Shown piece after piece: positions 3,396 through 56,902 of a stretch of 64,000 bases of DNA (the stretch's first letter is position 1; each line of letters starts with the position of its first letter). Source of the DNA: a virus. The notes beneath the pieces are model-generated. The model was not told the DNA's origin, did no database searches, and worked only from the letters and a program-made list of their open reading frames with translations. Position numbers and translations under genes: made by a program. The stretch spans positions 64,001 to 128,000 of the IMG/VR virus record IMGVR_UViG_3300023184_000038; one strand, 5' to 3'.

Positions 3396-3412
3396 CCATT
3401 GATAAATATAGT

Positions 3413-5218
3413 ATGGATATTAAAGAATTAAATTCGTTTAAAGTGTCAGATGCTATTACATTTCATGACCATCTTAATCCTAGGCTGTTTCACGGGAATA
3501 GATTACAACCGGCCGTTGAAAAACAATTAAAAATTATTGCCCAAGATTTTTTACAAGAATTGGGAGTATATGATATTAATGTTAAAGATATAACAGTATC
3601 TGGCTCAAATGCAGCATATAGTTATACTAAGCATAGTGATTTAGATTTACATATATTAGTTGATTTATCTGAACAGCCAAATGATGAAGTATATAAAGAA
3701 TTATTTCATGCGAAAAAAACACTGTATAATGATAGCCATGACATTAAAGTTAATGGAATTCCAGTTGAATTGTATGTTCAAGATGTTGCATTTCCAGTAA
3801 TAAGTTTAGGTGAATATAGTGTATTAAACAATAAATGGATTAAAATTCCAAATAAGCGTAGAAGTAATTTTGACCATACCGATGCTAAAGCAAAGTATGA
3901 AAAATTAGCAAAATTAATAGAATATGCGTTACATGCTAACGATTTAAAACAAGTAAAAAATGTTTTAGAAACTATTAAAAGATACCGACAAACTGGATTA
4001 GAAAAGGGCGGAGAATTTGGCCCTGAAAATATTGTTTTCAAAGCATTGCGTAGCCAAGGCTTAATTACAAAATTATACGATTTAAGAGATAAATTACATA
4101 GTAAAAAATTAAGTTTAAGCGGGATGTATCAAGAAATTGATGAGGGTTTTGATCAACCATATCCAATAATATGGGAAAAGGGTTACCATGGAGATGTTGA
4201 TGCACTTGCTAAATTACCTGATGGTACTTATTTAAGCATTATGTTTAATAAGCAAGATAATGTTAAACCTGATGACAAGACATGGATGGTTGAATTTCAT
4301 AGAAACAACAGCCAAGAAGTAACAGGGGAGGGTGATGCACAAAAAGTATTTGCTACTGTATTGTCTGCCATTCAACAATTTATTATAAAATACAAACCAC
4401 TAAAAATATATTTCTCAGCAAGCAAAGAACCAGCGCCACTGAAACTCAGTAGCCCTGCTGGTGCTAAAGCAAACCCTGAAAGTCGTGCCAAGTTATATGA
4501 TAGATTAGTACTCCGTTATGCTAAATCTTGGGGATATAAGTTTTTCCGCGCTGACAATGGTTCTGATGTTATGTATCAATTTTCAAGAATACCAAAGCAA
4601 AAGACTGTGGGTGAAGATTACACTGGGCAATATGCTGCTGAAAAAACTCCAGTTGTAAGTCCTTATGCCGGCATCAAGGATAATCAATATCGTGGTGGGA
4701 TAAGTGAAGCAGCAGACATGGATTTTGAAGAAGGTGATTGTCCTATATTTGCCATTGCGTTACATCGTCTATCTAAGTTGCCATTAATGGCATTAGTTGA
4801 ATATGATGAAGAACTAGGTAGTACAGTATTAATCCATGCGTATGTAAAACTTGATGATAGATGGCGTCTGGATATCACTGGTGAAACAGATGTAGATTGG
4901 ATGTTACAAAAATATCCAAACAATGGTAACGCCGAAGAAATTGAGATTGGTGAGAAAGATTTGTTAGAATTGGGGTATGGAAAAAGCAAATGTCCTACTT
5001 TGCAACAGGTTCTACCCCATGCTAAAGAAGTTTTACAAAATATAAATGAAGCAAGTGGGTATATTCCAAGCGAAAAACAAAAGAATGATCCACGATTTAA
5101 GACGGCACTAACCGTAGATATTAGGCCAGATGCTATCAAAAAGAATGCAAAAGCATTTTATTGGAACACTAGTCGTGCCGGAATCCCTCCAACGGCAAAA
5201 GCAAACGGCAAAATATAA
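3413..5218 (+). CDS. modular protein with N-terminal Pol-beta-type nucleotidyltransferase domain
   Basis: GSNAAYSYTKHSDLDLH (GS...DxD) plus VELYVQD; further modules follow IDE, VGE, ISE and INE junctions. Confidence 0.7.
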   Translation: MDIKELNSFKVSDAITFHDHLNPRLFHGNRLQPAVEKQLKIIAQDFLQELGVYDINVKDITVSGSNAAYSYTKHSDLDLHILVDLSEQPNDEVYKELFHAKKTLYNDSHDIKVNGIPVELYVQDVAFPVISLGEYSVLNNKWIKIPNKRRSNFDHTDAKAKYEKLAKLIEYALHANDLKQVKNVLETIKRYRQTGLEKGGEFGPENIVFKALRSQGLITKLYDLRDKLHSKKLSLSGMYQEIDEGFDQPYPIIWEKGYHGDVDALAKLPDGTYLSIMFNKQDNVKPDDKTWMVEFHRNNSQEVTGEGDAQKVFATVLSAIQQFIIKYKPLKIYFSASKEPAPLKLSSPAGAKANPESRAKLYDRLVLRYAKSWGYKFFRADNGSDVMYQFSRIPKQKTVGEDYTGQYAAEKTPVVSPYAGIKDNQYRGGISEAADMDFEEGDCPIFAIALHRLSKLPLMALVEYDEELGSTVLIHAYVKLDDRWRLDITGETDVDWMLQKYPNNGNAEEIEIGEKDLLELGYGKSKCPTLQQVLPHAKEVLQNINEASGYIPSEKQKNDPRFKTALTVDIRPDAIKKNAKAFYWNTSRAGIPPTAKANGKI

Positions 5219-5273
5219 CTAACTTCAGTTACATGGGGTTTTTGATAAATACATTATCAGTACGGAACCTTAT

Positions 5274-5960
5274 ATGAAAATAACACAAATCACAGAAACT
5301 ACTACTAGCGGAAGTATTTCCCCGGTCGCCACTGTATTAGGGGCAACTCATACACGAGGAAATCCTAGTATATATGGCGGAAAAAAAGTTAAAAGTATGT
5401 TTTCTGGTAAAAAAACTAAAGAACCATATGGTAATAGCCTTCATGAAGGCGTTGAAATTAGTGAACAAGATTTGATTATGATGCCGGGACTAGGTAATAA
5501 AATAAATCCCGGCTTTATTAGTAAGCAAGATGATAGAACAGATAATGAAATTGCAATGGCTATAAATGATTTGTTTCAATCTGGTAGAAATGCTGAAAAA
5601 ATTTATAAAATGATTGAAGGCCGTAGTGAAGAAGTTGGTCTTGAGGGTTGGGTACAAGAAAAGATTATTAAAGCAAGTGACTATTTAAATACTGTTCGTG
5701 AATATTTAGAAGGACAAGAAATGTCAACTGTAGATGAAGGGCGACCGTTTAGGGGAGTTGATGGTGCATTTGACAGGGGAGATGATGAACGGCATGACTT
5801 AGACAGACCAAGAAAATGGCATGTAGTTATTGATGGAGATATTCAACCCCAAGGATTTAGTGACAGAGAAGATGCAAATATAGCCGGGCACAAAACACTT
5901 GCTGCCAATCCTAATTCTAGAGTAACTCTTAAACAAAAATGGGCGGATGACTATGAGTAA
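5274..5960 (+). CDS. hypothetical, putative internal head protein
   Basis: MKITQITE leader; GATAAATA at 5244. Confidence 0.55.
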   Translation: MKITQITETTTSGSISPVATVLGATHTRGNPSIYGGKKVKSMFSGKKTKEPYGNSLHEGVEISEQDLIMMPGLGNKINPGFISKQDDRTDNEIAMAINDLFQSGRNAEKIYKMIEGRSEEVGLEGWVQEKIIKASDYLNTVREYLEGQEMSTVDEGRPFRGVDGAFDRGDDERHDLDRPRKWHVVIDGDIQPQGFSDREDANIAGHKTLAANPNSRVTLKQKWADDYE

Positions 5961-7599
5961 TATCTTTGCAGGAATTTTGCTTAATGAATTATCAACTGAT
6001 AAATTAGCAAAATATAAAACAGCAGCCAGTGCGGATGCTACTAAATCTGATCAAGAAGGTAACTTCAAGCGCGGAGATAAAAGATTTAGTGGTATTGTAA
6101 AAGCAACTAATAAACAATTTGCAAATGATGCTAAAAAAGTTAAATTACCGGAAACAGTAACCGATGATGAAGATGATGATTATGTAGAACCGCCGAAGTC
6201 CGGAATTGATAAATTCCGCACTGCAGCTAGTATGGCCAATCTTGCTTTGACTCCGGCAATGTTAGCACAAACGGTTAGTACTGGAGCAAATGCATTAAGT
6301 AAACCCGCTGCTGCAGCAAGCGCCGCAAAGGTAGCGGCAAATCTAGGAGGTAGATTGCTCCCGGCGGCCGGCGCGGCACTTAGCGCGGCCTCAGCCGCAC
6401 ATAGAGCAAGTTTGGGTGATTATACTGGATCCGCGATTGATGCAGCCTCAGGCGCTGCATCTTTTGCCCCGGGCTGGGGAACAGCTGGTTCAATAGCTGG
6501 TATAGGTACTAACTTATTACGAGACCGGTGGAACACTGGTAATTGGTTCCCGACGGATGAACAACTGAAGGCAGCATACGGTAAAAAACCAGATGCACAA
6601 GTAGCACAAGGAGCAAAATCTGCCGCACCTGCACAAGCAGCAAAATCTGCCACTCCTGCACAAGCTGCAGCGCCGGTTGCAAAAACTACAGCCCCAGCCG
6701 CAAACACCAAGGGCTCTTGGCAAGAAATTTACAATTTAAATAAAACAATCATTGGGGCTAATCCCAATCTAATTAAACCGGGACAAAAATTAACATTGCC
6801 AAATGGCACAGTATACACAGTTAAACCCGGGGACTCTCTTAGTAAAATTGCAGCACAATCGGTACAAGAATCAATTTATATGCAATATGATAAAGTACCG
6901 TCTTCCATTATGTATGGTTTACTTGAAGCTAGTCAACAGTCAGCATCAATTAATATACCAAGCGGTCGTGGAATGAGTCCACTAGAGTGGCTGGCATCAT
7001 TAAGTAATAATCCTGACGCAGCAGTTGCCGGCGCTTCCCCTTCAAGGATTAAACCGGCTGGTGCTGCCTCTTCAAGGATTAAGCCGGAAGTTGGTGCTGA
7101 CCATGTAGATAGCACTGTCACTAGCAATACAGGTGACAATATGAGTAAAGCAAAACAATCTGCTGAACAATTCTTAGGTCGTAGAATTAGCAATGATGAA
7201 TGGGACCTTTTACTACGAGCAGTTACTGCTGAAGCAAGCGGCAACACAAAAGAGCAAGCCTGGGTAATGGGTGTTATATTAAATAGAGCTAGGTCAGGCC
7301 GTTGGGGAAGTAGTATCAATAAAGTATTATATGCACCAAACCAATTTCAAGCAGTGACTGGTACTAAGTATAATAGCAATCCAAGTTCTAACTTTACTAG
7401 AGGCCCAAATGCATCTCAACTAGCATCTATTGTAAAAGGTGCTATAGAAGTATTGCCAAATGTAGATCCATCAGTAATGAATTTTACAGCGGCTAATAGT
7501 GCTGCTTATGGAAGAGGCACTAATATTAATTTTAGAAATAAGTTAGCCGCAAGATCAGGCAGTCAACAAATTGGCCAAACTATATTTGGCACCGCATAA
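5953..7599 (+). CDS. LysM + SleB/Hydrolase_2 cell-wall hydrolase domain protein
   Basis: IYNLNKTIIGANPNLIKPGQKL and YTVKPGDSLSKIA (LysM); LLRAVTAEA...VILNRAR...VLYAPNQFQAV (SleB-like). Confidence 0.8.
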   Translation: MSNIFAGILLNELSTDKLAKYKTAASADATKSDQEGNFKRGDKRFSGIVKATNKQFANDAKKVKLPETVTDDEDDDYVEPPKSGIDKFRTAASMANLALTPAMLAQTVSTGANALSKPAAAASAAKVAANLGGRLLPAAGAALSAASAAHRASLGDYTGSAIDAASGAASFAPGWGTAGSIAGIGTNLLRDRWNTGNWFPTDEQLKAAYGKKPDAQVAQGAKSAAPAQAAKSATPAQAAAPVAKTTAPAANTKGSWQEIYNLNKTIIGANPNLIKPGQKLTLPNGTVYTVKPGDSLSKIAAQSVQESIYMQYDKVPSSIMYGLLEASQQSASINIPSGRGMSPLEWLASLSNNPDAAVAGASPSRIKPAGAASSRIKPEVGADHVDSTVTSNTGDNMSKAKQSAEQFLGRRISNDEWDLLLRAVTAEASGNTKEQAWVMGVILNRARSGRWGSSINKVLYAPNQFQAVTGTKYNSNPSSNFTRGPNASQLASIVKGAIEVLPNVDPSVMNFTAANSAAYGRGTNINFRNKLAARSGSQQIGQTIFGTA

Positions 7600-7609
7600 G
7601 GAATTATAA

Positions 7610-8050
7610 ATGTTAGCAGAAAATTTAAAAGTATTATTGGCAAGTGTTAACTCATTGTCTATCAAAGCACAAAACTTTCACTGGAACGTGGAGGGAGATA
7701 ACTTCCCTCAATATCACGAATATCTTGGTAATTTCTATGAAGAAGTATACAGTGCAGTAGATAAAATTGCTGAATACATTCGTACATTAGATAGTTATAG
7801 TCCAGGAAGCTTAACACGCTATACTGAATTAACAATCATTCAAGATCAACTTAAAATCCCTCGTGCCGAATTAATGTTTGTTGAATTGTTTGAAGATAAT
7901 GGCAAGATGATTGAATTACTTAATCATTGCTTTAGTTCTGCTACAGAAGAAAATAAACAAGGTATTGCTAACTTTATCGCTGAAAGATTAGATGCTCACG
8001 AAAAACATCAATGGCAGCTTAGAAGTATATTAAAAACTACAAGAGCATAA
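7610..8050 (+). CDS. dps: Dps/ferritin-like DNA protection protein
   Basis: FHWNVEG, HEYLGNFYEE, DKIAEYIR and HEKHQWQL ferroxidase motifs. Confidence 0.9.
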   Translation: MLAENLKVLLASVNSLSIKAQNFHWNVEGDNFPQYHEYLGNFYEEVYSAVDKIAEYIRTLDSYSPGSLTRYTELTIIQDQLKIPRAELMFVELFEDNGKMIELLNHCFSSATEENKQGIANFIAERLDAHEKHQWQLRSILKTTRA

Positions 8051-8075
8051 TATATATTTACCATAAGGAATTATA

Positions 8076-8495
8076 ATGCGATTATATGAAATAGAACCTA
8101 GACCTAGTATAGAGAAACAATTTGACCTTATTGAGAGTATGGTTGAAAGTTTTGCAAAACATCATAATGTTGACAGTGAGATAATATGGGAAGATTTAGA
8201 ATCAGTTGATGATTATGAATTATTGGTTGAAGCCGCTGCCTGGAGAACCAGTAAAGGAAAAAGTAAAAAAGGTGGATTAAACGCTAAAGGTGTAGCAAGT
8301 TATCGTAGAGAAAATCCTGGCAGCAAGTTGCAAATGGCAGTTACCACTAAGCCAAGCAAATTAAAGCCAGGCTCAAAAGCAGCCAAACGTCGGAAATCAT
8401 TTTGTGCAAGAATGGGCGGCGTTAAAGGACCAATGAAGAAACCTAACGGTGATCCCACACGCAAAGCATTGGCTTTACGCAAATGGAACTGTTAA
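8076..8495 (+). CDS. conserved phage protein with basic C-terminal domain
   Basis: acidic N-half ending LVE, then basic AAWRTSKGK...RRKSFCARM...RKWNC. Confidence 0.65.
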   Translation: MRLYEIEPRPSIEKQFDLIESMVESFAKHHNVDSEIIWEDLESVDDYELLVEAAAWRTSKGKSKKGGLNAKGVASYRRENPGSKLQMAVTTKPSKLKPGSKAAKRRKSFCARMGGVKGPMKKPNGDPTRKALALRKWNC

Positions 8496-9130
8496 TGAGA
8501 GCAAATGAAATAACAATAGATGACTCACAATCTCTTGTTGAATTTAGCAAGACTGATGCGGGTATACACAAAGAATTAATAGCCAAAGGATATAAACCTA
8601 TAGGCAAGCCGGGTGTGGATCAAACTGCATATATTGAACCGCGCAGCGGCATGATTCTCAAAATATTTGGGACTCGTCCAGGAAGTAAAACTTTTACAAA
8701 AGATCAAAAAATGTTTTTTATCTGGGCTAAATTTTGTATGGATAATTCATCTAACTTATTTTTACCACGATATTATGGGCATGAAAGTTTTAATTATAAC
8801 AATTCATTATATTTACAAATTCGTACTGAGAGATTGCAACACAATCCTAAATTAGGTCGTGCGGTTTCTAGTCTAGGCGAATATGCCAGTATTGGTTCTA
8901 TGGATGCACGTGGCACCTTGGATTATTTTGTAAAAAATCAACCTCAGCGAAGTTATTATGAAACAATAAAACAAACAATTGGCGAAGAAAATGTGATACC
9001 GTTGTTAAATACACTAGGCAACTTGTATAAAATTGCTAGTAAAAAGGGATATATGTGGGACCTGCACTCAGAAAATGTCATGACCAGAACCAATGGATGG
9101 CCAGTGATCAATGATCCTTGGACTATATAA
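8495..9130 (+). CDS. protein-kinase-like fold protein
   Basis: MRANEI leader; MILKIF, WDLHSENVM and VINDPW resemble kinase catalytic motifs. Confidence 0.6.
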   Translation: MRANEITIDDSQSLVEFSKTDAGIHKELIAKGYKPIGKPGVDQTAYIEPRSGMILKIFGTRPGSKTFTKDQKMFFIWAKFCMDNSSNLFLPRYYGHESFNYNNSLYLQIRTERLQHNPKLGRAVSSLGEYASIGSMDARGTLDYFVKNQPQRSYYETIKQTIGEENVIPLLNTLGNLYKIASKKGYMWDLHSENVMTRTNGWPVINDPWTI

Positions 9131-9133
9131 TAT

Positions 9134-10522
9134 ATGAGAGCAAAAGAATTTATTGTTGAAGCATTGACTCCAGAACAAACATCAAAACTGTTCCAACAGT
9201 TGGGTGTGAAATGGGATACTAATATTCATAACGCTATTTTTAACGGTAAATCACGAATATATATTCCAATGCCATCACAAATAGCAAACACTACTGTATC
9301 CCCAACACAACATAAAATTGAAAATACATTGTCTGACATTGGTTATCAAATAGCAGACTATGCTGCAGGGATAGCACAAAAGAAAAATGATCCAACTAGA
9401 AAAATTAAAATTGGTAAACTACTTACAGATAAATCATTACTACAAACATTTGCCAATGATCCGTACCGAGCCGCATCTACACAATCTAATGAGTTAGAGG
9501 TAGTGATATCTCGTGACCCAGTAGATATTGCTGGTATGAGTACTGACCGAGGTTGGACTAGTTGTATGAATCTAGACGGTGGAGAGAATAATAGATATGT
9601 ACCAACAGAAATACGGAACGGGGCAATTATTGCGTATTTAATTAGAAAGACTGATAAGAACATTGATAAGCCATTGGCACGAATATTGTTAAAACCTTAC
9701 TATTTTAAAAATCATATAATTTTAAATCCAGACAAAGTATACGGCACTGCTCCTGCATCATTTAACGAAGTAGTGAATGATTTTTGCAATAACGTTAATA
9801 GTAATAGTCCAGAAGGAGATTATAGACTACCCGGCGGTTGTTATCGAGATAGCGCAGAATATGTCATGCATCTTAAAGACTACAGTGATTTTAGTGGATT
9901 TACTGTTGCCAACCGAAAGATTATTGCCAACAACCCCAATAGCCCAATACAAGCATTAGTTAAGTTGGCCAAGGATGAAGATCCCGGGGTAAGAGAGATT
10001 GTAGCCAGTCGTGCAGCTTGTCCACTTGAAGTGTTAATTGAGTTGTCGACGGATAGCAACAGTACTGTAAGGTGGAGGGTGGGGTTGAATCAAAAAACAC
10101 CAAAAGACATATTAGTTAATTTAGCCAAGGATCAGGAGCCGGAGGTACGAGTAGGTGTAGCCGCTAACCGCCGAGCTTCAGATGAAGTGTTAGTTAGTTT
10201 AGCCAATGATCCAGAGGAAAATATTCGAGGAGAAGTGGCAAAAAATATCAATACTCCAATCAAAGTTTTGGTCCAGTTGAGCAAGGACCAAAACGTTTTG
10301 GTAAGATATGTGTTGGCTCGTAGTCCTAGTTGTCCAAGCAATATATTGTCTGAGTTGGCTAATGATGAAGTAGGAATGGTAAGAGCTGCTGTAGCCGGGA
10401 ACCGCAGTGCTCCGGGTGAAGTGTTAGCTAGGTTAGCAAACGATGCTTCTTGGAAGGTGAACGGCGTTGCAAAAGAAACGATTCACTGGATCACAACACA
10501 AGAGAAAAATAACAATTTATGA
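9134..10522 (+). CDS. protein with C-terminal HEAT/leucine-rich-variant repeats
   Basis: MRAKEFIVE leader; about eight 24-aa repeats LAKD..VR..VA.N..P. Confidence 0.75.
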   Translation: MRAKEFIVEALTPEQTSKLFQQLGVKWDTNIHNAIFNGKSRIYIPMPSQIANTTVSPTQHKIENTLSDIGYQIADYAAGIAQKKNDPTRKIKIGKLLTDKSLLQTFANDPYRAASTQSNELEVVISRDPVDIAGMSTDRGWTSCMNLDGGENNRYVPTEIRNGAIIAYLIRKTDKNIDKPLARILLKPYYFKNHIILNPDKVYGTAPASFNEVVNDFCNNVNSNSPEGDYRLPGGCYRDSAEYVMHLKDYSDFSGFTVANRKIIANNPNSPIQALVKLAKDEDPGVREIVASRAACPLEVLIELSTDSNSTVRWRVGLNQKTPKDILVNLAKDQEPEVRVGVAANRRASDEVLVSLANDPEENIRGEVAKNINTPIKVLVQLSKDQNVLVRYVLARSPSCPSNILSELANDEVGMVRAAVAGNRSAPGEVLARLANDASWKVNGVAKETIHWITTQEKNNNL

Positions 10523-11679
10523 GAGCAAAAGAATTTATTGTTGAAACTGCTATGATGGGCAAGATTGCAGACTCGGGCAAAATTATTCGCATCTTGAAGA
10601 AAGCACACACCGTGCCATTCAGTGATGAAAAAAACTGGTTGCTGGTAGATACTGATCCTGGCAAAGGCAACAGTGGACTGGGTATCAAATGGATTCCGGC
10701 CGACACAAGATTTGAATGGGTAAGACCTTATAAAGATAGTGTAGATGAAAACTTGTCTCCGCAGACCATACACAAATTGGCAGACCACAAAGGTGTAAAA
10801 TGGGATGACGAACCCAGTTTCCTTCAACTTACCAAACGATTAACAGGCAAAGAACATTTGGATGACTTAGATCAAGCAGGGTTGAACAAAGTTAAAAAAC
10901 ATTTGGATGGGTTGCAAGGGGTGGCGGAAGGCGGTGCCGAAACAAGTTGGTCCAATGACACCGATACAATTACACTACAGGATATTTTAGAATTAACCAA
11001 ACATATTAAACAAATAAATTTACCAATTAACGATAATCTAAAGAGTAAACTACTTCATTGGGAAGGTAACCCAGAAGAAATAGAAAGAGTTAATCAAGTA
11101 ACGGTGTCTAACCAATTTCCTATTTTAATTATGGTGGATGAGCAAGGTCAAATAGCCTGGATACTCGATGGCAACCATAGACTACACAAGGCAATACAAT
11201 CACAAGCAAAAACAATACCTGCTAAACTTATTAGACCCAGCAACCTTGATGATAAAGCAAAGAAAATATTTAATATAAAAGAGCAAGGTGTGGCGGAAGG
11301 CTCCGAGAACAATAATACAACAGCACAAAAAATATTCTTTGCTCGTAGTAATAAAACACCCAAAGGATGGAGTTATGACCATGTTGGATTTATAACTCAA
11401 GATGGAAAACAAATTCAAATGAGTGGGCATAAAGGCAATGATGTATATGTCACTAACGATGTGACTGATGATCCGGAGTTTCCTAAACAAAATATCAAAA
11501 TTGTATCATTATCAAAACCAGTATCGGTGCCTACAACTAACTCAGTAGGAGCAGAAAATTGTGGAACATTTGTGGCAAATGTATTACAAGCCAATGGTAT
11601 AAAAGGTATTGATACACAAAAAATATATAGTGTGTTCAAAAAACCTCAAGAGCAAGGTGTGGCGGAAGGCTTAAAATAA
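10519..11679 (+). CDS. modular protein: ParB/Srx-like module + permuted papain-like module, separated by QGVAEG
   Basis: FPILIM...ILDGNHRL (ParB-like); DHVGF...ENCGTFVA (His before Cys); three QGVAEG linkers. Confidence 0.7.
   Translation: MRAKEFIVETAMMGKIADSGKIIRILKKAHTVPFSDEKNWLLVDTDPGKGNSGLGIKWIPADTRFEWVRPYKDSVDENLSPQTIHKLADHKGVKWDDEPSFLQLTKRLTGKEHLDDLDQAGLNKVKKHLDGLQGVAEGGAETSWSNDTDTITLQDILELTKHIKQINLPINDNLKSKLLHWEGNPEEIERVNQVTVSNQFPILIMVDEQGQIAWILDGNHRLHKAIQSQAKTIPAKLIRPSNLDDKAKKIFNIKEQGVAEGSENNNTTAQKIFFARSNKTPKGWSYDHVGFITQDGKQIQMSGHKGNDVYVTNDVTDDPEFPKQNIKIVSLSKPVSVPTTNSVGAENCGTFVANVLQANGIKGIDTQKIYSVFKKPQEQGVAEGLK
10915..10932 (+). repeat. QGVAEG linker repeat copy 1
   Basis: CAAGGGGTGGCGGAAGGC. 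Confidence 0.85.
11281..11301 (+). repeat. QGVAEG linker repeat copy 2
   Basis: GAGCAAGGTGTGGCGGAAGGC. Confidence 0.9.
11650..11670 (+). repeat. QGVAEG linker repeat copy 3
   Basis: GAGCAAGGTGTGGCGGAAGGC, identical to copy 2. Confidence 0.9.
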
Positions 11680-11680
11680 A

Positions 11681-12574
11681 ATGAGAGCAACTGAATTTAT
11701 TACCGAGGAACACGAGCCAACCCGAATCAAACTTGGTAACAACGATGCCGCTAAGGCTTGGATTGACCGAGTCTACACAAAATATCCACATACCATGCAA
11801 AACAACCATGTCATGGTTTGGGGGTCAGGCGATGACCAACAGTTTGCTATGTTTGAACTGATACCTAGTTTTAGTAAACGCGGTGCAGTTGAAGTCAAAT
11901 GGTTTCAAGCATATCCTTTACGACAAGGCGTTGGATCACGTGCCATGCAAGAATTGCAGGCTATGGCCCGCGAAGATGGCATTGCTCTTACTTTATTCCC
12001 CTGGGACAAAGGACAAGTAAGTCAAAGTAAACTAACCAAGTTCTATCGAGGTCAAGGGTTTAAGCCCACCGTGAAGGGCAGCAAAAGCATGGCATGGACA
12101 CCAGAACTAAATGAAGCCGAACTCAGCATAGATGTACCTAACGAAGAATGGTTACAGGAAAAGATAGACTATGCCAAACGCAAAGGCCGCAATAGTTTTG
12201 GCGTGCCTTATATGGGCAGCACCACTGCTTATGTTCAAGGAACACCGTTAAAAGCTCGTGTGATGAGATTGGCTTCTTTGCCGGGCATGAGGAACGAACA
12301 AACCAATGTGCGTCAAAATGACCTAAAGTGGTTAATGGATTACATGGACCGAACAGGTAAGTTACCACCTATGAAAACCAGTTCCGACGATGAGTACATG
12401 CCCTACATCATGGTAGCCTACAATGGTGAAGCATGGGTCAACGAAGGTAATCACCGTATCATGGCCGCATATAGATTAAACTGGCAGACCATGCCCATAC
12501 AACTTGCTTACTTTGATGGCGGAGAACGTGTGGAAAGTGGTGCCATGTATCCAGGCAAGATTGGACTAGCATGA
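11681..12574 (+). CDS. GNAT acetyltransferase-like + ParB-like modular protein
   Basis: MRATEFITE leader; RQGVGSRAM...KFYRGQGF (GNAT); LNE junction; VNEGNHRI (ParB-like). Confidence 0.7.
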   Translation: MRATEFITEEHEPTRIKLGNNDAAKAWIDRVYTKYPHTMQNNHVMVWGSGDDQQFAMFELIPSFSKRGAVEVKWFQAYPLRQGVGSRAMQELQAMAREDGIALTLFPWDKGQVSQSKLTKFYRGQGFKPTVKGSKSMAWTPELNEAELSIDVPNEEWLQEKIDYAKRKGRNSFGVPYMGSTTAYVQGTPLKARVMRLASLPGMRNEQTNVRQNDLKWLMDYMDRTGKLPPMKTSSDDEYMPYIMVAYNGEAWVNEGNHRIMAAYRLNWQTMPIQLAYFDGGERVESGAMYPGKIGLA

Positions 12575-14070
12575 GAGCAAACGAATTCATAACCGAAATA
12601 TTTCAACCTGGTAAGAAAAACTGGGAATGGATACGCAGAGATAACACATACGCCAGTGCTCGTTTTAGTGTTGGCGATAGAACTTATACTTGGCAGGCGC
12701 ATGGTGCGGAATCCGATAATGATGGCCCTACTCATTGGATTCTTGAATTTAGAATTGAACGAGAATTAGCCGATCCTGACAGGTTAGATGTTTGGGGTAA
12801 GACTGGTACAGGTAACTCAGCAGAAGTAATGTCAACCGCAGTTGATATTACCCGTGAATTCATTAAAGAGTATGGTGATAAAATATCAGAATTAACTTTT
12901 GATGCCAAAGAAGATTCTCGTATTGGATTGTATGCTAAGATGATTGCACGTTTACTACCTGGGTGGGAATTGAATCAAACATACAATAAAAACTTTGGTA
13001 TGGAGTTTCGTTTAACTAACCCTAAATCAAATGAATTTATCACAGAGAGTTCGCAACAAACTACCTTACGACAACTGTACGGTGGTAACTATCCAGATCG
13101 TGATGAAGAATTTTGGGACTATGTGTCATCTAGTGAATTTGATCAACCATTGACAGTTGAAACAATGGCAAAACATAAAGTATTGATTATGTTACTCAGT
13201 CAATATCGTGCAGAACATATTGATGACATAACTGATATGTTAGATGATGATCAACAAGCAATTGTACAATCATATGTTAATGATCCGGCACTAGCAAGCA
13301 AAATAATAGTTGTTGCTAACAATAGAATCATTGATGGTAATCATCGTGCATTAGCTGCTGCAATCAAAGGTGTACCTATTAATTATGTTGATTTATCTGA
13401 ATTAGAAGAAGAACCGATAGATGAAGCAGAAACAGACACACCAAACGCTAGAGAGATATCAAAACAACTAAGAGCGGTAGGTTATTCACATGTAGGGTCT
13501 GGTGCTGATGCTACTGTTTGGGCAAAAGATGATAGTCATGTAATTAAGATATTGATGCCAGAAGATGCAGGTAGTAAAGCAGAACAAGTATTTCGTAAGT
13601 TTTATGAATTTTCAATGAGCCGGCAAGATTTGGCGTGTGTTCCTAGATTCAATGAAGTAACCACGATTGATATTAACGGTAAAGATTATACTCAGATTGA
13701 GATGGAGAAATTATCTTCTATTCCCAAAGGTTCGTTTGTTGAGGGTTTAATTTGGTTCCTGAGTGATTACACTAGTTCTCCTGAATCATGGGAAACAATA
13801 GAGCGTGAACTAGCAGACCCAAACACATGGAAAAATTACATCCCACAATATGCTAATGCATTTGCTAAAGTTTGGCAAAGTCTACTAGAAAATCCTGCAA
13901 GTAAAAAAACATATGCTATGTACAAACAGCTATATACTGTAATGCAAATATTATATAACACAGGCAGAATCAACAAATTTGGATGGGATTTGCATACAGC
14001 AAATGTCATGCTAAGACAGAACGGACAACCGGTAATAATTGATCCGTGGTTTAGTGAAGGTACATCCTAA
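12571..14070 (+). CDS. three-module protein: unknown + ParB-like + kinase-like
   Basis: MRANEFITE leader and an internal NEFITE copy; IIDGNHRA; GSGADATV...VIKI...WDLHTANVM...IIDPW. Confidence 0.7.
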   Translation: MRANEFITEIFQPGKKNWEWIRRDNTYASARFSVGDRTYTWQAHGAESDNDGPTHWILEFRIERELADPDRLDVWGKTGTGNSAEVMSTAVDITREFIKEYGDKISELTFDAKEDSRIGLYAKMIARLLPGWELNQTYNKNFGMEFRLTNPKSNEFITESSQQTTLRQLYGGNYPDRDEEFWDYVSSSEFDQPLTVETMAKHKVLIMLLSQYRAEHIDDITDMLDDDQQAIVQSYVNDPALASKIIVVANNRIIDGNHRALAAAIKGVPINYVDLSELEEEPIDEAETDTPNAREISKQLRAVGYSHVGSGADATVWAKDDSHVIKILMPEDAGSKAEQVFRKFYEFSMSRQDLACVPRFNEVTTIDINGKDYTQIEMEKLSSIPKGSFVEGLIWFLSDYTSSPESWETIERELADPNTWKNYIPQYANAFAKVWQSLLENPASKKTYAMYKQLYTVMQILYNTGRINKFGWDLHTANVMLRQNGQPVIIDPWFSEGTS

Positions 14071-14087
14071 TATATATGACTTATAAG

Positions 14088-14178
14088 AACACCCTTAGGA
14101 CCAGTACTAGTTACTGTAAGTGTGAGGCGGCTGCTGCCTATATAACCCAATTCGCTACTGGGAAGTATAAAGTGAGCA
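14088..14178 (+). ncRNA. candidate structured RNA (unassigned)
   Basis: intergenic stretch with three hairpins (CAGTA/TACTG, AGGCGG/CTGCCT, CCCA/TGGG) and a possible closing CTTA/TGAG helix. Confidence 0.4.
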
Positions 14179-14197
14179 TTAATTTGATAAATACATA

Positions 14198-14770
14198 ATG
14201 CGTTATACTGAGTTTATTATTGAATCTCCTGCAACTGAATTGGCTAAAAAATTGCCATCTTTGGATAAACATGATTATGATACTATTGATAGATTAATGT
14301 CAACTATAGCAAAAAGACATCGTATTACTGGTAAAGCATTGCACGATTTGTTTATTAAAAAATATCATCGGTCACCGGATGATTGGATTAAAAGCAAATT
14401 GGATGAAAATACATCATTGGATATTCAAGACGAAGTGGATAAGTTTTGTAATTGGGCTTGTCAAAAATTAAAAATTAAAACTAAACCGTACATAGAATTA
14501 AGTATGGATACTGAAGAAGCACAAAATAATCATCATACCGGAGGTCATGTCCCCGGTGAAAATAATATATGGGTTTATGCAAAAAATCGTAATTTAGTAG
14601 ATATTTTACGCACGGTGTTTCATGAATTGGTTCACGTACGGCAAGGTGAATTAAATATGATTACCCCAGGATCTAGTTATCCGGGTAGCCCAATTGAAGC
14701 CTTAGCAGATTTAATGGCCGGAAAATATATTAAAATTTACGGCAAACAACATCATAATATTTTTCAATAA
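14198..14770 (+). CDS. zincin-like metallopeptidase domain protein
   Basis: MRYTEFIIE leader; RTVFHELVH (HExxH) and downstream EALA. Confidence 0.7.
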   Translation: MRYTEFIIESPATELAKKLPSLDKHDYDTIDRLMSTIAKRHRITGKALHDLFIKKYHRSPDDWIKSKLDENTSLDIQDEVDKFCNWACQKLKIKTKPYIELSMDTEEAQNNHHTGGHVPGENNIWVYAKNRNLVDILRTVFHELVHVRQGELNMITPGSSYPGSPIEALADLMAGKYIKIYGKQHHNIFQ

Positions 14771-14821: not shown

Positions 14822-14850
14822 TTGACTTTAAGATCCTACTACTGTATAAT
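14822..14850 (+). promoter_or_regulatory. sigma70-type promoter
   Basis: TTGACT-17 nt-TATAAT. Confidence 0.8.
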
Positions 14851-29484: not shown

Positions 29485-30317
29485 TGAAAAAAGTATTAAT
29501 AACAGGTAATTCAGGTTATATCGGTAGTCATCTTTCCAAGATGTTAGCAGATTCTTATGAAGTATATGGGTTAGATATTACCCTTCCACAGACAGATCGG
29601 CTTAAAGATTGGTATAATATTGATATTCGTAAATTATTTACTATTGACCAAGAATTTGATGCAGTAATACATTTAGCAGCCTTAGTTAATGTAGGTGAAA
29701 GTGAGCAGCAACCCATAAGTTATTATATTACCAATTTGAATGGGACGATGAATGTCATCAATAAGATTAAGACAAAGAATTTTATTTTTGCAAGTACTGG
29801 CGCAGCAGCGGGATGTGAGAGTGCATATGGTATTAGTAAACGTGCTGCGGAAGATGTGGTGCGTGAATATTGCACTATACATAATCCCAAAGATTACACA
29901 ATATTTAGGTTCTATAACGTAATTGGTAGTGATGGTTTTTTGCCAACTAATCCAGACGGGTTGATGTATAATTTAATGAAATCAAAAGAAAAGGGCGAAT
30001 TTACTATTTTTGGGAATGACTATGATACCCGAGATGGAACTTGCATACGTGATTATGTACATGTTAATGAGATATGTGAAGCATTAGGTAGTGCTATTGA
30101 GAGGCCAAGTAATCAAATAGAATGTTTAGGGCATGGAGTAGGTTATACTGTTGCCGAGATAGTTAATACGTTCAAAAAAGTAAACAATATACCTAATATT
30201 AATTTACTTACTAAGATAGGTCCAAGAAGAAAGGGTGACTTAGCAGTATCTGTATTAGATAATGTGTCACCCTATATGAAGAATCTTTATACTTTAGAGC
30301 AGTTACTTAAAGTTTAA
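29481..30317 (+). CDS. galE: NAD-dependent epimerase (UDP-glucose 4-epimerase-like)
   Basis: TGNSGYIGSH, HLAA, YGISK (YxxxK), DGTCIRDYVHV. Confidence 0.8.
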   Translation: MMKKVLITGNSGYIGSHLSKMLADSYEVYGLDITLPQTDRLKDWYNIDIRKLFTIDQEFDAVIHLAALVNVGESEQQPISYYITNLNGTMNVINKIKTKNFIFASTGAAAGCESAYGISKRAAEDVVREYCTIHNPKDYTIFRFYNVIGSDGFLPTNPDGLMYNLMKSKEKGEFTIFGNDYDTRDGTCIRDYVHVNEICEALGSAIERPSNQIECLGHGVGYTVAEIVNTFKKVNNIPNINLLTKIGPRRKGDLAVSVLDNVSPYMKNLYTLEQLLKV

Positions 30318-32059
30318 GAAGCCCATTTTTTATAGGGCTTTGGTAATTTATTTTCCGCCACACCTTGCTTTCTAATCTTAACATTACCCCTCATTCGGTC
30401 AACACTTTCAGGAGTAGGAATATTTAGGCTACGGAACTGAGCTGTGCCTTGTGCAGCAACTGGTCCTCCATGTAAACTATCACGCTCTTCACCTTTGCTG
30501 TTACGCCACTTACCGTCAGTGCCTTGTGTCAGTGGTTCTTTTGTTTGATAGTCTCGTGGAACAAACGGTGCATTTGCACTAGGCTCTGGACTTGGGCTAG
30601 GTGATGAAGTAGATGCTGCTTTCCAGCCAGCCGCGTTCATTGCGTCTACAGTTTGATCACCGGGCTGTTTGCCGTCAGCTTTTCCATTTACAATTCGCAA
30701 ATACGAAGCCATTCCATACTGTGTACCAGAGCCTGCTGGCTTTTCAATCCAGTATGTTTTGCTTTGTGTATCAAGAACAGCTGGATAATTCTGACCATTA
30801 TAGTTAGTAGTTGTTAAAGTAAATCCATTACCTAAATCTTTTTCATTTGCCGGCGGTCCTCCAGCAGTGGCACCAGTATTACTAAAATCATTTATATTAG
30901 CTCCTGGTGGCAATCGTGGACGAATTGGTGCTTCAGCAGAGGCACCAGTATTACTAAAATCATTTATATTAGCTCCTGGTGGCAATCGTGGACGAATTGG
31001 TGCTTCATCTTCTTCTGTCACACCTTGCTTCTTATATACATCCTTGAATGCTTTATTAAAAATGTCAGTAGCTTGCTTAGTTGTTTTTTTAGCAGTGGTT
31101 GGCGTGGCAGTATGTTGTGGGTCAGAGTCGCTATAGTGGTCTCTTGAACCATATGTGCTATGACTTCTTGTGCCATCAGATTTCATACGTCCTTTGGGTT
31201 CTTGACTATGCATTTCCGCCACATCAGATTCTGGTTTCTTCTGCCCGTACATGTCTTTTCCATCTTTATCATAATGAGTTGGGGGAAAATCATACGCTTT
31301 ATTATGAATATCTTGCCTGGCCCATCTATTCATCTCACGCGGCCGGGGAATTAATTTTACCGTAGGCGTATGCTTATCTTTCAATGCCCAGTTATTCATT
31401 CCTTCCGCCACACCTTGCTCTAAACGATTCTGCGCTTTAGCAAATCCTGCAACACTGCGGTTGGCTTTTTCTGGACTACGCTTTGTTGGGTCTGCTTTAT
31501 GTTTCATAGAGTCGGAACTTACTTTTTGTTGATAACTCTTTAGTGCATTATTGCTAACTTCCGCCACACCTTGCTCGGCCATTCCTAACTTACGCATTAC
31601 CGCCGGAGAAGCGATTTTGTTTTTTATACAATTGGGATATTTTTTCCCAAACATAGTTTTCATGCCTTCTTTGTGATATCCTTTCCAGCAAGCTTCGTCT
31701 AAACTTTTCTGTGAGTGATCTCCGTGTGTTTCACACATACCACAGTCTTCACAGACCATTTCCATCTCAATGCTTTCGTTGTGTTTCTTTTTACCAGCGC
31801 AATGAGCCTTTTGACTAAATCCTTTGGGATGTGAGCAATTGATACTGCTTTTATATTTTTGACTCCATCCCTCATTATAGTTATCATACTTATTACGAAC
31901 AGCATCTAACTTTTTTTCACTAGCACCTTCACGTCCTGCTTTGGCTAATGCCTTCATACCATTTTTGCCATACTTTTCATTGCCCTTGGCAGCACGACTC
32001 ATTGGTCGTTTATTCTCTATTACTTTTTCTGTGCTAACAATTATGTGATTTATTTTCAT
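30314..32059 (-). CDS. modular polyprotein-like protein with five GVAE-type linkers
   Basis: 581 aa; EQGVAE x2, DVAE, KQGVTE, KQGVAE; short modules such as WSQKYKSSINC and CWKGY. Confidence 0.7.
   Translation of the reverse strand: MKINHIIVSTEKVIENKRPMSRAAKGNEKYGKNGMKALAKAGREGASEKKLDAVRNKYDNYNEGWSQKYKSSINCSHPKGFSQKAHCAGKKKHNESIEMEMVCEDCGMCETHGDHSQKSLDEACWKGYHKEGMKTMFGKKYPNCIKNKIASPAVMRKLGMAEQGVAEVSNNALKSYQQKVSSDSMKHKADPTKRSPEKANRSVAGFAKAQNRLEQGVAEGMNNWALKDKHTPTVKLIPRPREMNRWARQDIHNKAYDFPPTHYDKDGKDMYGQKKPESDVAEMHSQEPKGRMKSDGTRSHSTYGSRDHYSDSDPQHTATPTTAKKTTKQATDIFNKAFKDVYKKQGVTEEDEAPIRPRLPPGANINDFSNTGASAEAPIRPRLPPGANINDFSNTGATAGGPPANEKDLGNGFTLTTTNYNGQNYPAVLDTQSKTYWIEKPAGSGTQYGMASYLRIVNGKADGKQPGDQTVDAMNAAGWKAASTSSPSPSPEPSANAPFVPRDYQTKEPLTQGTDGKWRNSKGEERDSLHGGPVAAQGTAQFRSLNIPTPESVDRMRGNVKIRKQGVAENKLPKPYKKWAS
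30353..30369 (-). repeat. QGVAE linker repeat copy 4
   Basis: reverse complement AGCAAGGTGTGGCGGAA. Confidence 0.85.
30869..31007 (-). repeat. 72-nt tandem duplication
   Basis: EAPIRPRLPPGANINDFSNTGA twice, nucleotide-identical. Confidence 0.9.
31011..31030 (-). repeat. degenerate linker repeat copy 5 (KQGVTE)
   Basis: reverse complement AAGCAAGGTGTGACAGAAGA. Confidence 0.7.
31214..31225 (-). repeat. degenerate linker repeat copy 6 (DVAE)
   Basis: reverse complement GATGTGGCGGAA. Confidence 0.65.
31401..31420 (-). repeat. QGVAEG linker repeat copy 7
   Basis: reverse complement GAGCAAGGTGTGGCGGAAGG. Confidence 0.9.
31558..31576 (-). repeat. QGVAE linker repeat copy 8
   Basis: reverse complement GAGCAAGGTGTGGCGGAAG. 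Confidence 0.9.
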
Positions 32060-32538
32060 TTACTACCCTTTTCTTTATATGCCCAACGAGGTCCACCACC
32101 GCCGCCACCTGTTTCATTAAACCATGCATTGGATTCAGCTTGAGGTAAAGATTTTAGCCATTTAGAAAGCACTCCGGCCGCTGGGATCTTTCCATTTTTG
32201 TCAACAAATCTAGTGGAAATGACTCCTTTACGATTATCACCTATTTGCGGACTCAGCCAAACGCCATTCCACGCAGGTTCCCACATCATTATTTTTGTTG
32301 GATTGAATTCCCATTTTGTTGGGGAGAGCGGTCTAAGCAGATACACAGTTCCAGTTCCTCCGGGCGATGGGTTTGGAATTTCTTTATAATTACCTTTGGG
32401 AATTTGAATTGAAGCTTGACCAATCTTGCTTGCAGGGACCATATGGGTCCAGTTACTGGGTACAACATCATTACCACTACCTTTAGCAGTAGTTGCGGCA
32501 GGTGCTCCCTGAGATGCCAGCCACTCTAGTGGACTCAT
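32056..32538 (-). CDS. hypothetical protein
   Basis: 160-aa ORF with ATGA overlaps on both sides. Confidence 0.6.
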   Translation of the reverse strand: MSPLEWLASQGAPAATTAKGSGNDVVPSNWTHMVPASKIGQASIQIPKGNYKEIPNPSPGGTGTVYLLRPLSPTKWEFNPTKIMMWEPAWNGVWLSPQIGDNRKGVISTRFVDKNGKIPAAGVLSKWLKSLPQAESNAWFNETGGGGGGPRWAYKEKGSK

Positions 32539-34133
32539 TGTTCATCCTTCATCAGGAACCCTAGTTTTTTCATGGCTGTCAGATAGGCTCTCCACAATTT
32601 ATCAGGCCAACCGGTTGGTCGTTCGTAAGTCTTTCCGTCTACGGTTGCACGTTTTGGTAAAGGGCCAATATCTTGCACTGGATCTCCTGATTTACCCCAG
32701 GGCTTGTCGGTTGCTGCAACTGCCAGTGCTGGCAATTGACCAGACATAGCCTTCTCTCTAAGGTCTTCTATACCATCTATTGTTGCTTTTATATCTACTT
32801 TTAAATCGGCATCAGTAGTATCTAGTCCAAAATAACGCACAAGTATAGGCAACTGTTTTTTAATTATATCAACATCTTCTTTTGATATAAATCCAGCTGC
32901 TACAGCCTGTCCAACTGTACCTGCCTGCCCGGCTCCGCCTTCAGGTCCTCCGCCAGGCACACCGCCTTCAGGTCCTCCGCCAGGCACACCGCCTTCAGGT
33001 CCTCCGCCAGGCACACCGCCTTCAGGTCCTCCGGGAGGTTTATCTTCTGGTTTTTCTTCTTTGTTATTCCACCAGTCCCATAATGCTTTACCACCTTCAT
33101 ATGCTCCCCATAAGCCTAATCCCACGCTTCCAGCTTTTCCTAACTTACCAAGACCACTACCAATACTACGCATTGGATTACGGGCAGCAGCTGCTGCGGT
33201 CCGTCTAGCAGTTGATTGAGCTGTAATTGCTGCCCTTCTAGCTGCCTGGGCTGCTCTATTCCTAGCGCCGGGACTGCCACCTCGGACTAGTCTACCAAGT
33301 CCCCGAACTAACGGAGCAATAAATTCATTTAATTGTTCTGGCTTATTTTCAATTAAAATAGTAAAAATTCTAATTTGTTCAGCAGGTGAAAATTCATGTA
33401 GATTTTCAGATATCAGCCTACGTTTGAGAGTATTTCTACTTTCTGTTGTTACCTTATATTTTTTAAGAATATTGTTTAATTGAGTCAATGCAGTAGTTAA
33501 ATCAGCGGCAGGGCCGATATCTTTATCTGCATTTCCTGATTTACCCCTAAGATTGCCCGCTGCTGCAGCACCTGCTGCACCACCTGCAGTATTTGCACCC
33601 GCCTCGGCATCCATTCTATCAGCAATTCGTTCAGCTTGTGCTGCTGCGTCCGGTGCTTGATTTGCTGTAGTTGATGAATCAGTAGAAGAGTTTCCTGCTT
33701 GATTTGGTGTATCTGAGGAATCAGTAGAAGAGTTTCCTGCTTGATTTGGTGTATCTGGGTAAGGTTCAAACTTGTAAGGGGCAGAGTCAGTGCCGGGCCC
33801 AGGATCTTTACCGGCTTGGTTAGTTCCCGAAACACCGCGGCTAGTACCAAACGTTCCAAAATTAGAAGAAGCATTGTTAGGAGATGTGCTAAATATTGGT
33901 TCATCTGGCTTTCCACCAACTACACTCTTAACTGTATTCAAGTTGCTTGTACCAACGTTTAGTTCTTTTGCTTTTGCTTGATCGTCGGGGTCTTTAAAAT
34001 AACTTAGTGGAGGCTTTTCACCGGGCATTCTGGCTAAAATATACGGATCTTTACGGTCTGCATTACCCAACCATTTTTCTTGTTCGGGAGTAGGAGTCCA
34101 TTCTTCCCGCAAAATTAATTCATTTATTTTCAT
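32535..34133 (-). CDS. low-complexity putative internal virion protein
   Basis: MKINELILRE leader; Gly/Pro/Ala repeats; GATAAATA upstream. Confidence 0.65.
   Translation of the reverse strand: MKINELILREEWTPTPEQEKWLGNADRKDPYILARMPGEKPPLSYFKDPDDQAKAKELNVGTSNLNTVKSVVGGKPDEPIFSTSPNNASSNFGTFGTSRGVSGTNQAGKDPGPGTDSAPYKFEPYPDTPNQAGNSSTDSSDTPNQAGNSSTDSSTTANQAPDAAAQAERIADRMDAEAGANTAGGAAGAAAAGNLRGKSGNADKDIGPAADLTTALTQLNNILKKYKVTTESRNTLKRRLISENLHEFSPAEQIRIFTILIENKPEQLNEFIAPLVRGLGRLVRGGSPGARNRAAQAARRAAITAQSTARRTAAAAARNPMRSIGSGLGKLGKAGSVGLGLWGAYEGGKALWDWWNNKEEKPEDKPPGGPEGGVPGGGPEGGVPGGGPEGGVPGGGPEGGAGQAGTVGQAVAAGFISKEDVDIIKKQLPILVRYFGLDTTDADLKVDIKATIDGIEDLREKAMSGQLPALAVAATDKPWGKSGDPVQDIGPLPKRATVDGKTYERPTGWPDKLWRAYLTAMKKLGFLMKDEQ
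32935..33033 (-). repeat. 27-nt tandem repeat x3.7 (GGPEGGVPG)
   Basis: CCGCCTTCAGGTCCTCCGCCAGGCACA repeated. Confidence 0.9.
33676..33757 (-). repeat. 42-nt tandem duplication (DTPNQAGNSSTDS)
   Basis: two identical 40-nt copies. Confidence 0.9.
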
Positions 34134-34158
34134 TTTAGTTTACCTTGTTTAGTATTTA

Positions 34159-35700: not shown

Positions 35701-35775
35701 ATGTCTCCGTAAATCATTTACTTTATTAGGCAAATATGCTATAATATACTATATTTATCACTACTGGCAATTCTT

Positions 35776-43684: not shown

Positions 43685-43687
43685 TTG

Positions 43688-43891
43688 ATGAATAATTTAA
43701 AGAACTTTATTGATAAAGTTTCCTATGTAGAATCAAGACAGGGTAAAACTTTGGCGTTATCTATAACTGAAGCCAGAGCGTTGCGTGATGATTTATCTAA
43801 ATTGTTATTAGATACATATGAAGTTGGACAACACAAAGTAAGTTTGCCGGAACCTACCTTTCAAGTGGAATTAATAGGTAGGAAATTTTAA
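43688..43891 (+). CDS. hypothetical protein
   Basis: 67-aa ORF. Confidence 0.55.
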   Translation: MNNLKNFIDKVSYVESRQGKTLALSITEARALRDDLSKLLLDTYEVGQHKVSLPEPTFQVELIGRKF

Positions 43892-56185: not shown

Positions 56186-56210
56186 TATTAATCGTCAACT
56201 ATGATATAAT
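56182..56210 (+). promoter_or_regulatory. sigma70-type promoter
   Basis: TTGATA-17 nt-TATAAT. Confidence 0.7.
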
Positions 56211-56900: not shown

Positions 56901-56902
56901 TA

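Follow-up and report, generated by a model that had tools for sequence, protein, structure and literature searches.

Why should a kinase-like protein, a chain of mobile modules and a minimal zincin all begin with nearly the same nine residues? The question is raised by an array of genes at positions 5274 to 14770 of a 64,000-nucleotide (nt) stretch of viral DNA, the window, which comprises bases 64,001-128,000 of one 143,665-base IMG/VR viral contig, linear and about 41% complete (CheckV). Our analysis suggests, with moderate confidence, that the start M-R-A-x-E-F-I-x-E is a T4-type capsid-targeting propeptide and that the proteins bearing it are cargo that would be packed in the phage head and delivered with the DNA. 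We infer targeting, cleavage, packaging, injection and the functions of the cargo from sequence.

In T4 the capsid targeting sequence (CTS) is MKTYQEFIAE, and a single cut is made beside these ~10 residues (PMC8442874). IPI-III, Alt and gp24 each lose a short N-terminal peptide to T4 gp21, which also takes 65 residues off gp23 and cleaves nine from itself (PMC5694885, PMC9958956); the T4 sequences that we fetched show matching N-terminal Leu/Ile-x-Glu motifs. An earlier reading of the window from its letters alone (the sequence-only reading) had likened the leader to this tag, and the likeness holds: the core E-F-I-x-E is common to both, and I-x-E at residues 7-9 is the gp21 cutting motif. For concreteness, the mechanism that we propose would run as follows. 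The genes would be transcribed late, alongside head and tail genes, and the leader would draw each protein into the prohead scaffolding core, where a gp21-type (Peptidase_S77) prohead protease would cut it off after Glu (Glu9, possibly Glu5). The mature proteins would remain in the head and exit with the DNA at infection. The cargo would be an exchangeable set made up partly of single enzymes and partly of chains of several modules, with domains that include kinase-like, GNAT-like, ParB/Srx-like, zincin, HEAT, DUF6321 and GP88; the modules of a chain are linked by a fixed peptide, QGVAEG, which also fits the hydrophobic-x-Glu cutting rule.

The leader in the array and in its relatives

A strict form of the leader, M-[RK]-x-x-E-[FIL]-[ILV]-x-E, stands at the start of five open reading frames (ORFs) in the 143,665-base contig, those beginning at 9134, 10519, 11681, 12571 and 14198, so that all five are clustered at 9134-14198. 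From the frequency of internal copies, 1 in 44,812 residues, 0.005 would be expected at N-termini as against the five observed. The array and its borders are laid out as follows (lengths in amino acids, aa).

3400-3408, +: late-promoter-like word TGATAAATA, 4 nt ahead of the ATG of a 601-aa gene
3413-5218, +: 601-aa protein whose homologues elsewhere have cargo modules and QGVAE joints at the C-end
5243-5251, +: late-promoter-like word, fronting the closely packed gene block 5274-14070
5274-5960, +: 228-aa protein; family-specific N-terminus of the MKITQITE type, kept in homologues
5947-7599, +: 550-aa LysM and cell-wall hydrolase protein (Hydrolase_2; Pfam), without strict leader
7610-8050, +: Dps/ferritin-like protein (Pfam), conserved anchor of the variable locus, without strict leader
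8076-8495, +: 139-aa basic DUF6321 protein (Pfam), degenerate leader; in relatives a full leader sits directly on DUF6321
8495-9130, +: 211-aa kinase-like protein, paralogue of the C-terminal domain of the 12571 protein; leader variant without Glu9
9134-10522, +: 462-aa protein; strict leader, N-domain without assignment, HEAT/LRV repeats (Pfam)
10519-11679, +: 386-aa protein; strict leader and three independently mobile modules bounded by QGVAEG joints
11681-12574, +: 297-aa protein; strict leader, GNAT-like domain (weak), DGNHR-motif domain (ParB/Srx-like lead)
12571-14070, +: 499-aa protein; strict leader, DUF6934-like domain, internal leader copy, DGNHR-motif domain, T7-kinase-like domain
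14185-14193, +: late-promoter-like word, 4 nt ahead of ATG 14198
14198-14770, +: 190-aa protein; leader-type N-terminus with invariant Glu9, helical helix-turn-helix (HTH)-like domain, minimal zincin with invariant HExxH
14822-14850, +: good (11 of 12) sigma-70-like promoter at the head of the DNA polymerase module; marks the end of the cargo block

The 601-aa protein, judged by its homologues, is a probable part of the same cargo block. Every gene start listed by the sequence-only reading is present where it was placed, and the first 27 nt of the 9134 gene are indeed identical to those of the 10519 gene. Around 8495 the longest ORF begins at 8483; since ATG 8495 overlaps the stop of the preceding gene, it is the likelier start. 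A test based on any N-terminal [LIV]-x-E was dropped as too common to discriminate: the bare motif occurs within residues 2-10 in 12-19% of all ORFs versus 8-12% at a control position. Because [LIV]-x-E is so frequent, the looser starts at 5274, 8076, 8495, 34133, 35700 and 63360 cannot be called by motif, and they are weaker evidence than the strict five. Those at 8076 and 8495 gain support from homologues with the full leader, and those at 34133 and 35700 from a promoter word and from QGVAE joints; the proposal for 63360 is unsupported, and whether the N-terminus at 5274 is a leader is uncertain. The leader does not resemble a Sec/Tat signal peptide, which requires a hydrophobic core of at least 10 residues; it is nine residues long, two of them Glu, and the sequence behind it is polar.

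Is the leader a property of these particular genes, or does it travel from protein to protein? We examined 80 loci anchored on the polymerase gene alone (77-100% identity). Upstream of the polymerase lies a hypervariable stretch in which the number of leader ORFs (134-780 aa) changes from locus to locus; the Dps-like gene, the zincin gene of 190 aa and a gene of 86 aa frame it. Of 30 loci compared, nearly every one has its own gene content from the Dps-like anchor to the polymerase. When the first 12 residues were trimmed, the 47 leader ORFs from the polymerase-anchored loci fell into 14 groups without BLASTP similarity to one another. A set of 74 ORFs from pattern-anchored IMG/VR loci and the window's array fell into at least 21 unrelated groups. 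The claim of a shared N-terminal leader on unrelated proteins is therefore borne out, the five strict copies and these groups in relatives showing it to be modular. Among the homologues listed for two array proteins the strict leader is found on 69 of 120 and 38 of 119, in many architectures. The leader is also conserved at the level of the peptide: Glu9 is kept across phages that share just 57% polymerase identity, and at codons 5-9 synonymous variation proceeds at about background rates.

We also scanned IMG/VR with a 17-base version of the leader in which Glu9 lay outside the pattern. Among the 130 matches listed, 117 are true ORF starts, 116 have both Ile7 and Glu9, and 108 have both properties. 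The same scan of 596 Gb of prokaryote genomes, which served as a negative control, gave 120 matches with both properties in 1, that is, chance level. On this comparison of sequences the leader is shown to be restricted to viruses.

The largest leader group is a family of ~125-aa proteins whose basic C-end is conserved (S-P-V followed by F-K-G-Y-K-R-K or a close variant) and whose genes often stand in tandem; it occurs in IMG/VR loci L092-L170 (e.g. L166:8056-8430, minus strand) and adjoins tail genes in two relatives, G006 and G009. A second leader type, M-x-x-I/L-x-E-L-F, which resembles the start of T4 Alt, is present on several proteins of another relative, G001 (L087:2181-3041, L090:10336-10560, L090:18101-19357), among them the small core protein beside its portal gene, and on many homologues of the array proteins (P0082, P0093 and others).

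Within the 499-aa protein, residues 153-159 (nt 13030-13047) repeat the leader core. In many relatives the 349 residues downstream form a leader-tagged gene of their own, and it looks as if two leader genes had recently been joined in frame. We considered this internal copy as a sign of selection and dropped the idea, since the copy is kept only in one homologue, which is 92% identical.

Head machinery of the lineage and timing of the array

Does the phage have the machinery that such a leader would call for? By its sequence the source is an uncultured jumbo phage with T4-type relatives. The family-B DNA polymerase of the contig (15131-17845) shares 47-50% identity with its counterparts in Sinorhizobium phage Phosso and Agrobacterium phage Atu_ph07 and ~42-43% with those in Rak2-like jumbo phages, and a megablast of the array against 50,697 phage records gave zero matches, so that none is close at the DNA level. 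The contig has tail sheath, tube, fibre and neck genes, and the head module is absent from this fragment. A search for the protease family PF03420 and for PF07068 found neither in the contig, a result that is uninformative because the contig is incomplete.

The relatives supply what the fragment does not. In G001, the nearest relative with head genes (77% polymerase identity), a Peptidase_S77 (PF03420) gene scores above the Pfam cut-off, and the gene order is T4-like: portal, small core protein, gp67-like protein, protease, scaffold, major capsid protein. These genes, the gp67-like one included, also stand in T4 order in G009, and all three complete leader-bearing genomes (345, 525 and 338 kb) encode a PF03420 protease. 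One S77 protease gene of the clade, of 212 aa, lies at L090:11488-12126. BLASTP ties the relatives' portal, protease and capsid proteins directly to T4 gp20, gp21 and gp23. Alignment shows that the protease retains the catalytic motifs at His85 and Ser140; moreover, the T4 gp23 cut site L-T-E aligns with L-A-E, and the gp21 self-cut L-I-E with L-I-E or L-K-E. The start of the gp67-like core protein contains E-F-I-I-N-E. We rejected the start of the capsid protein (L-L-E or L-I-E ending at residue 7) as a 7-residue leader, since alignment with T4 gp23 puts the homologous cut ~42 residues in. These sequence comparisons support a T4 gp21-type protease and a scaffold core in this lineage.

A probable timing of the array can be read from its promoter words. 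The word TGATAAATA, one base off the T4 late promoter, has 21 copies in the contig, nearly all just upstream of ORFs and on the coding strand; it precedes the genes at 3413, 5274, 14198, 34133 and 35700 as well as tail tube, fibre and adaptor genes, and the tail sheath gene has it as TATAAATA. Its 8-base core GATAAATA occurs 15 times in the window versus 7 expected, a number reached by 0 of 100 shuffles. The genes of block 5274-14070 are packed or overlapping, and no terminator on the + strand was found inside the block. In G001 [TG]ATAAATA precedes the portal and other head genes and not the polymerase gene, and both G001 and G009 encode a gp55-type late sigma; in the contig, too, the polymerase module has a sigma-70-like promoter instead of the late-like word. 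Thus the array appears, from its promoter words, to be late-transcribed. Ahead of several genes (3400-3415, 14185-14200, 43675-43690) the word ends 4 nt before the ATG, so that transcripts would be leaderless or nearly so.

Two further observations concern the surroundings. Genes for 7-deazaguanine DNA modification adjoin the array in the same phage. After the tail tube genes (contig 54848-58204, + strand; L083:14848-18204) there is a 1118-aa acidic, low-complexity protein with internal duplications, with Q-G-M-A-E-G and G-V-A-E-R motifs and without a family match, which may be a tape-measure-like or internal protein.

Proposed cargo domains and the joints between modules

What would be packed? 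The sequence-only reading had named kinase-like, GNAT, ParB-like, papain-like, zincin, HEAT-repeat and gp88-like domains, and these have fared differently. Pfam finds LRV/HEAT repeats in the 9134 protein, as it does GP88 in the gene at 34159-35700, which belongs to a second block described below; the LRV repeat was also the sole match in PDB sequence searches with three array proteins. PHROG and Atlas support the kinase-like assignment: over its C-terminal 200 residues the 12571 protein hits a PHROG whose annotation is T7-type protein kinase (E 1.5e-9), and the same residues match Atlas clusters in which ~10% of members have Phage_T7_kinase, with template-modelling (TM) scores by row of 0.80-0.88, which is a lead only. 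For the zincin, the predicted fold and an HExxH that is invariant in the 14198 family agree with the claim. The model of the 14198 protein (mean predicted local distance difference test, pLDDT, of 80) is confident. In it the leader is disordered, a helical domain is HTH-like, and nearly all of the best structural matches to the C-domain are zincins, including SPRTN and Wss1, at middling Z scores of 7.3-7.4; Foldseek of this model against PDB gave no match at E <=0.001. The GNAT domain stays below the cut-off in the window's own protein (E 0.007) and is clear in homologues, whereas the ParB-like domain is a lead only (DGNHR motif; Atlas TM 0.60) and the papain-like domain is unsupported (CHAP, E 0.056). 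A fold search on the 10519 protein was dropped at a mean pLDDT of 52 for its AlphaFold model, low partly because the mixed-architecture alignment is poor.

DUF6321 is a putative cargo domain with a wider distribution, being found in 537 cultured phage records, and its genes are located within head modules of cultured phages. In the T7-like Pelagibacter phage HTVC031P it makes up a small basic gene flanked by those for scaffold and capsid (L376:2983-3228), and in the T4-like cyanophage S-TIM4 it is the C-end of a 365-aa protein that starts M-A-T-N-E-I-I-E and adjoins the terminase gene (L375:2176-3273). A search for literature on DUF6321 and for cyanophage virion data on its homologues gave nothing usable.

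The 386-aa protein at 10519 illustrates how cargo may be put together. QGVAEG occurs in it three times, at residues 133-138, 256-261 and 379-384 (nt 10915-10932, 11284-11301 and 11653-11670), and in 119 homologues the BLAST match ends pile up exactly at this peptide. Each of its modules recurs at 85-100% identity in dozens of architectures, with partner domains that include ParB_N, GH19, cytidine deaminase, pterin dehydratase, GNAT, DUF6886, DUF6934, DUF6321 and GP88. Where module 1 lies inside a chain, E-N-F-V-x-E precedes it in three different contexts. Further joints, of the form QGVAE, lie on the minus strand at 30353-30364, 31403-31414, 31559-31570 and 35566-35577, in a second block of the window.

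30314-35760, -: second block, four genes of 581, 160, 532 and 513 aa, with two MKIN-type starts behind the same promoter word
34153-34161 and 35752-35760, -: promoter words of the second block, ahead of the MKIN-type starts 34133 and 35700
second block, -: QGVAE joints in the 581-aa and 513-aa proteins; GP88 domain (Pfam) in the 513-aa protein

The 160-aa gene of this block starts MSPLEWLAS (32512-32538, minus strand), which is repeated exactly inside the LysM-hydrolase protein at residues 343-351 (6973-6999, + strand) and may be a further shared joint.

The V-A-E of the joint fits the hydrophobic-x-Glu rule and is similar to the L-A-E capsid site. It is also conserved as DNA: of 88 in-ORF copies counted in ~2 Mb of DNA from related phages, 54 use the identical 12 bases GGTGTGGCGGAA despite the rarity of the codons GTG (14%) and GCG (8%), the conservation spanning ~17 bases with flanks that are unconserved, and one copy of QGVAEG lies only three residues from the C-end. 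Because of this conservation as DNA and this last copy, a role as recombination joint is at least as well supported as a role as cut site. We entertain, as a tentative idea to which we give well below an even chance, that the start word ATGAGAGCA and the 17-base joint are two fixed DNA words that act as recombination joints for swapping cargo modules among related jumbo phages and that also encode the address and the protease sites. As the same words would encode both, any new combination would be packaged and cut automatically, and leader and joint would together be a built-in diversity generator for injected effectors.

Rival readings and known systems

What else could the shared start be? 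The array could be virion cargo of the polyvalent type that is cut by the locus's own zincin (14198) and not by the prohead protease, the leader being an address or a zincin recognition site only. In favor of this, no member of the locus is better conserved than the zincin gene, which is present in 51 of the 80 polymerase-anchored loci, its HExxH is invariant, its predicted fold is that of a minimal zincin like SPRTN or Wss1, and polyvalent proteins, which have the same palette of kinase, GNAT, ParB and lysozyme domains, have been proposed to be processed by their own zincin (PMC5512222). However, we found no Pfam match to PolyVal peptidase or kinase models with E up to 1, a zincin lies within 10 kb in just 12 of 119 leader loci, and leader and joint both end in hydrophobic-x-Glu, the T4 gp21 rule that is kept at the homologous capsid and protease sites of this clade; we regard the zincin as an unlikely processing enzyme. 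It is less likely still that the leader has no packaging role and instead marks proteins for controlled turnover or handling inside the infected cell, for instance as a degron for the phage's own ClpA/C-like unfoldase and ClpP. The phage does encode both: a double AAA+ unfoldase of ClpA/C type, which has a Clp_N domain and lies ~3 kb upstream of the cargo block (L084:1827-4091, + strand), and a ClpP (L085:2684-3271, + strand), these genes lying outside and at the edge of the window. ClpP is found in 4 of 5 large relatives, sometimes in two copies. Yet the complete genome G009 has leader ORFs and lacks ClpP, Clp genes are unlinked to leader loci (2 of 119 and 6 of 119), leader-like copies persist within chains, where an N-degron could not act, and the core is identical to that of the T4 CTS.

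A peptide role might be dispensed with altogether if the shared start were a DNA- or RNA-level element, either a recombination joint or a favored translation-initiation region for coupled or leaderless genes. This would account for the 27 identical bases at 9134 and 10519, for the many leader starts that are stop-start coupled or lie 4 nt behind the promoter word, and for the near-fixed codons 2-3 (AGA in 25 of 27 and GCA in 21 of 27, versus usage of 32% and 45%), a bias at the DNA level; the QGVAE joint, too, is clearly conserved as DNA. It would not account for residues 5-9, which are kept while their codons change, for Glu9, kept at 57% polymerase identity, or for the internal peptide copies, which have other residues ahead of the core, and we consider it about as improbable as a degron. 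Finally, the leader could be the recognition sequence of a dedicated modifying enzyme, a maturase of the kind that acts on ribosomally synthesized and post-translationally modified peptides (RiPP-like). A radical-SAM gene adjoins ClpP in the contig and has a homologue in G009; however, it lies ~50 kb from the array, occurs in 0 of 80 polymerase-anchored and 8 of 119 leader loci, and no other enzyme recurs near leader loci, which leaves this the most improbable of the readings.

Several observations weigh against a capsid-targeting propeptide, our preferred reading. Protease, capsid and late sigma genes were not found in the contig itself, a 41% fragment, and because the contig is without head genes the link to a protease rests on relatives with 57-77% polymerase identity. 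The DNA-level bias at codons 2-3, just described, belongs here too, as do those homologues that retain M-R-A-x-E-F or M-R-A-x-E-I only, without Glu9, and the internal leader copy of the 12571 protein, which may be a neutral fusion scar. Two cultured relatives with the same protease family, Sinorhizobium phage Phosso and Vibrio phage 2.275.O, gave no match to a degenerate leader pattern, and the ~125-aa leader family had no tblastn match among the 50,697 records of cultured phages. Moreover, the promoter word also stands ahead of a few non-structural genes, and the distant relatives G006 and G009 do not use it ahead of head genes. The system is known here from genes of uncultured phages alone.

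If the capsid-targeting reading is right, the T4 capsid-targeting rule would be far older and wider than the T-even phages, shared by T4 with jumbo phages at a capsid-protein identity of only ~31%; the sorting of proteins into the T4 core is still described as mysterious (PMC9958956). Sequence alone could then list the injected proteins of uncultured phages, among them kinases, acetyltransferase-like and ParB-like proteins, a minimal zincin and wall hydrolases. Such proteins would be prime candidates for host takeover in the first minute and for counter-defence; in T4, type IV restriction enzymes are blocked by each of the three internal proteins (PMC12373910). The leader could, in addition, be put to use as a portable tag for packaging.

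How does the array compare with systems already described? Among the head-packaged accessory proteins of other phages, the phiKZ-like ejection proteins (SPN3US, phiKZ, 201phi2-1) share a gp21-related protease and head-internal propeptides cut after x-Glu, and their paralogues have identical N-termini, the propeptides being thought CTS-like in action (PMC5694885). However, these propeptides are mostly >100 residues long with the motif A/S-x-E, they belong to an unrelated lineage with its own head gene set, and they include no fixed 9-residue tag across unrelated families. In phage P1 the Dar proteins (DarA, DarB, DdrB, Hdf) are likewise head-packaged, injected accessory proteins, among them a ParB-like and zincin protein that is processed before packaging (PMC5512222), but P1 is without a shared short leader, has an ordered packaging hierarchy of protein-protein contacts and has another type of head.

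Closer are the polyvalent proteins of Iyer et al. (2017), which string together kinase, GNAT, ParB/Srx-like, zincin and peptidoglycan-hydrolase domains, occur in late or virion settings, are predicted to travel with the DNA and to be cut into units, and vary by recombination (PMC5512222). The three modules of the 10519 protein show the same hallmark, several effector domains per polypeptide that are shuffled among relatives. Here, in contrast, the PolyVal Pfam models are unmatched, a Kinase-PolyVal cluster being just an Atlas lead of 0.77, the domains are found on an array of separate leader-tagged genes as well as in chains, and the sites proposed for address and cutting follow the pattern of the T4 prohead protease.

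T4 itself offers the fullest parallel. Its CTS and internal proteins share with the array a ~10-residue N-terminal tag on unrelated proteins, with the identical E-F-I-x-E core and a hydrophobic-x-Glu end (PMC8442874), while the lineage has a homologous protease, portal, capsid and gp67-like core protein and a late-type promoter word (PMC9958956) and, like the T-even ip loci, hypervariable loci between conserved anchors (PMC12373910). On the other hand, the leader here is one residue shorter, with M-R-A for M-K-T-Y, the cargo consists mostly of large enzymes and multi-module chains and not of small inhibitors, a second fixed joint, QGVAEG, lies between modules, and the architectures, known from genes of uncultured jumbo phages, number in the hundreds. 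The nearest published precedents are the T4 CTS, the T-even ip loci and the polyvalent proteins, and what is notable here is a core near-identical to the T4 tag, its breadth in uncultured jumbo phages and its enzyme-rich, shuffled cargo.

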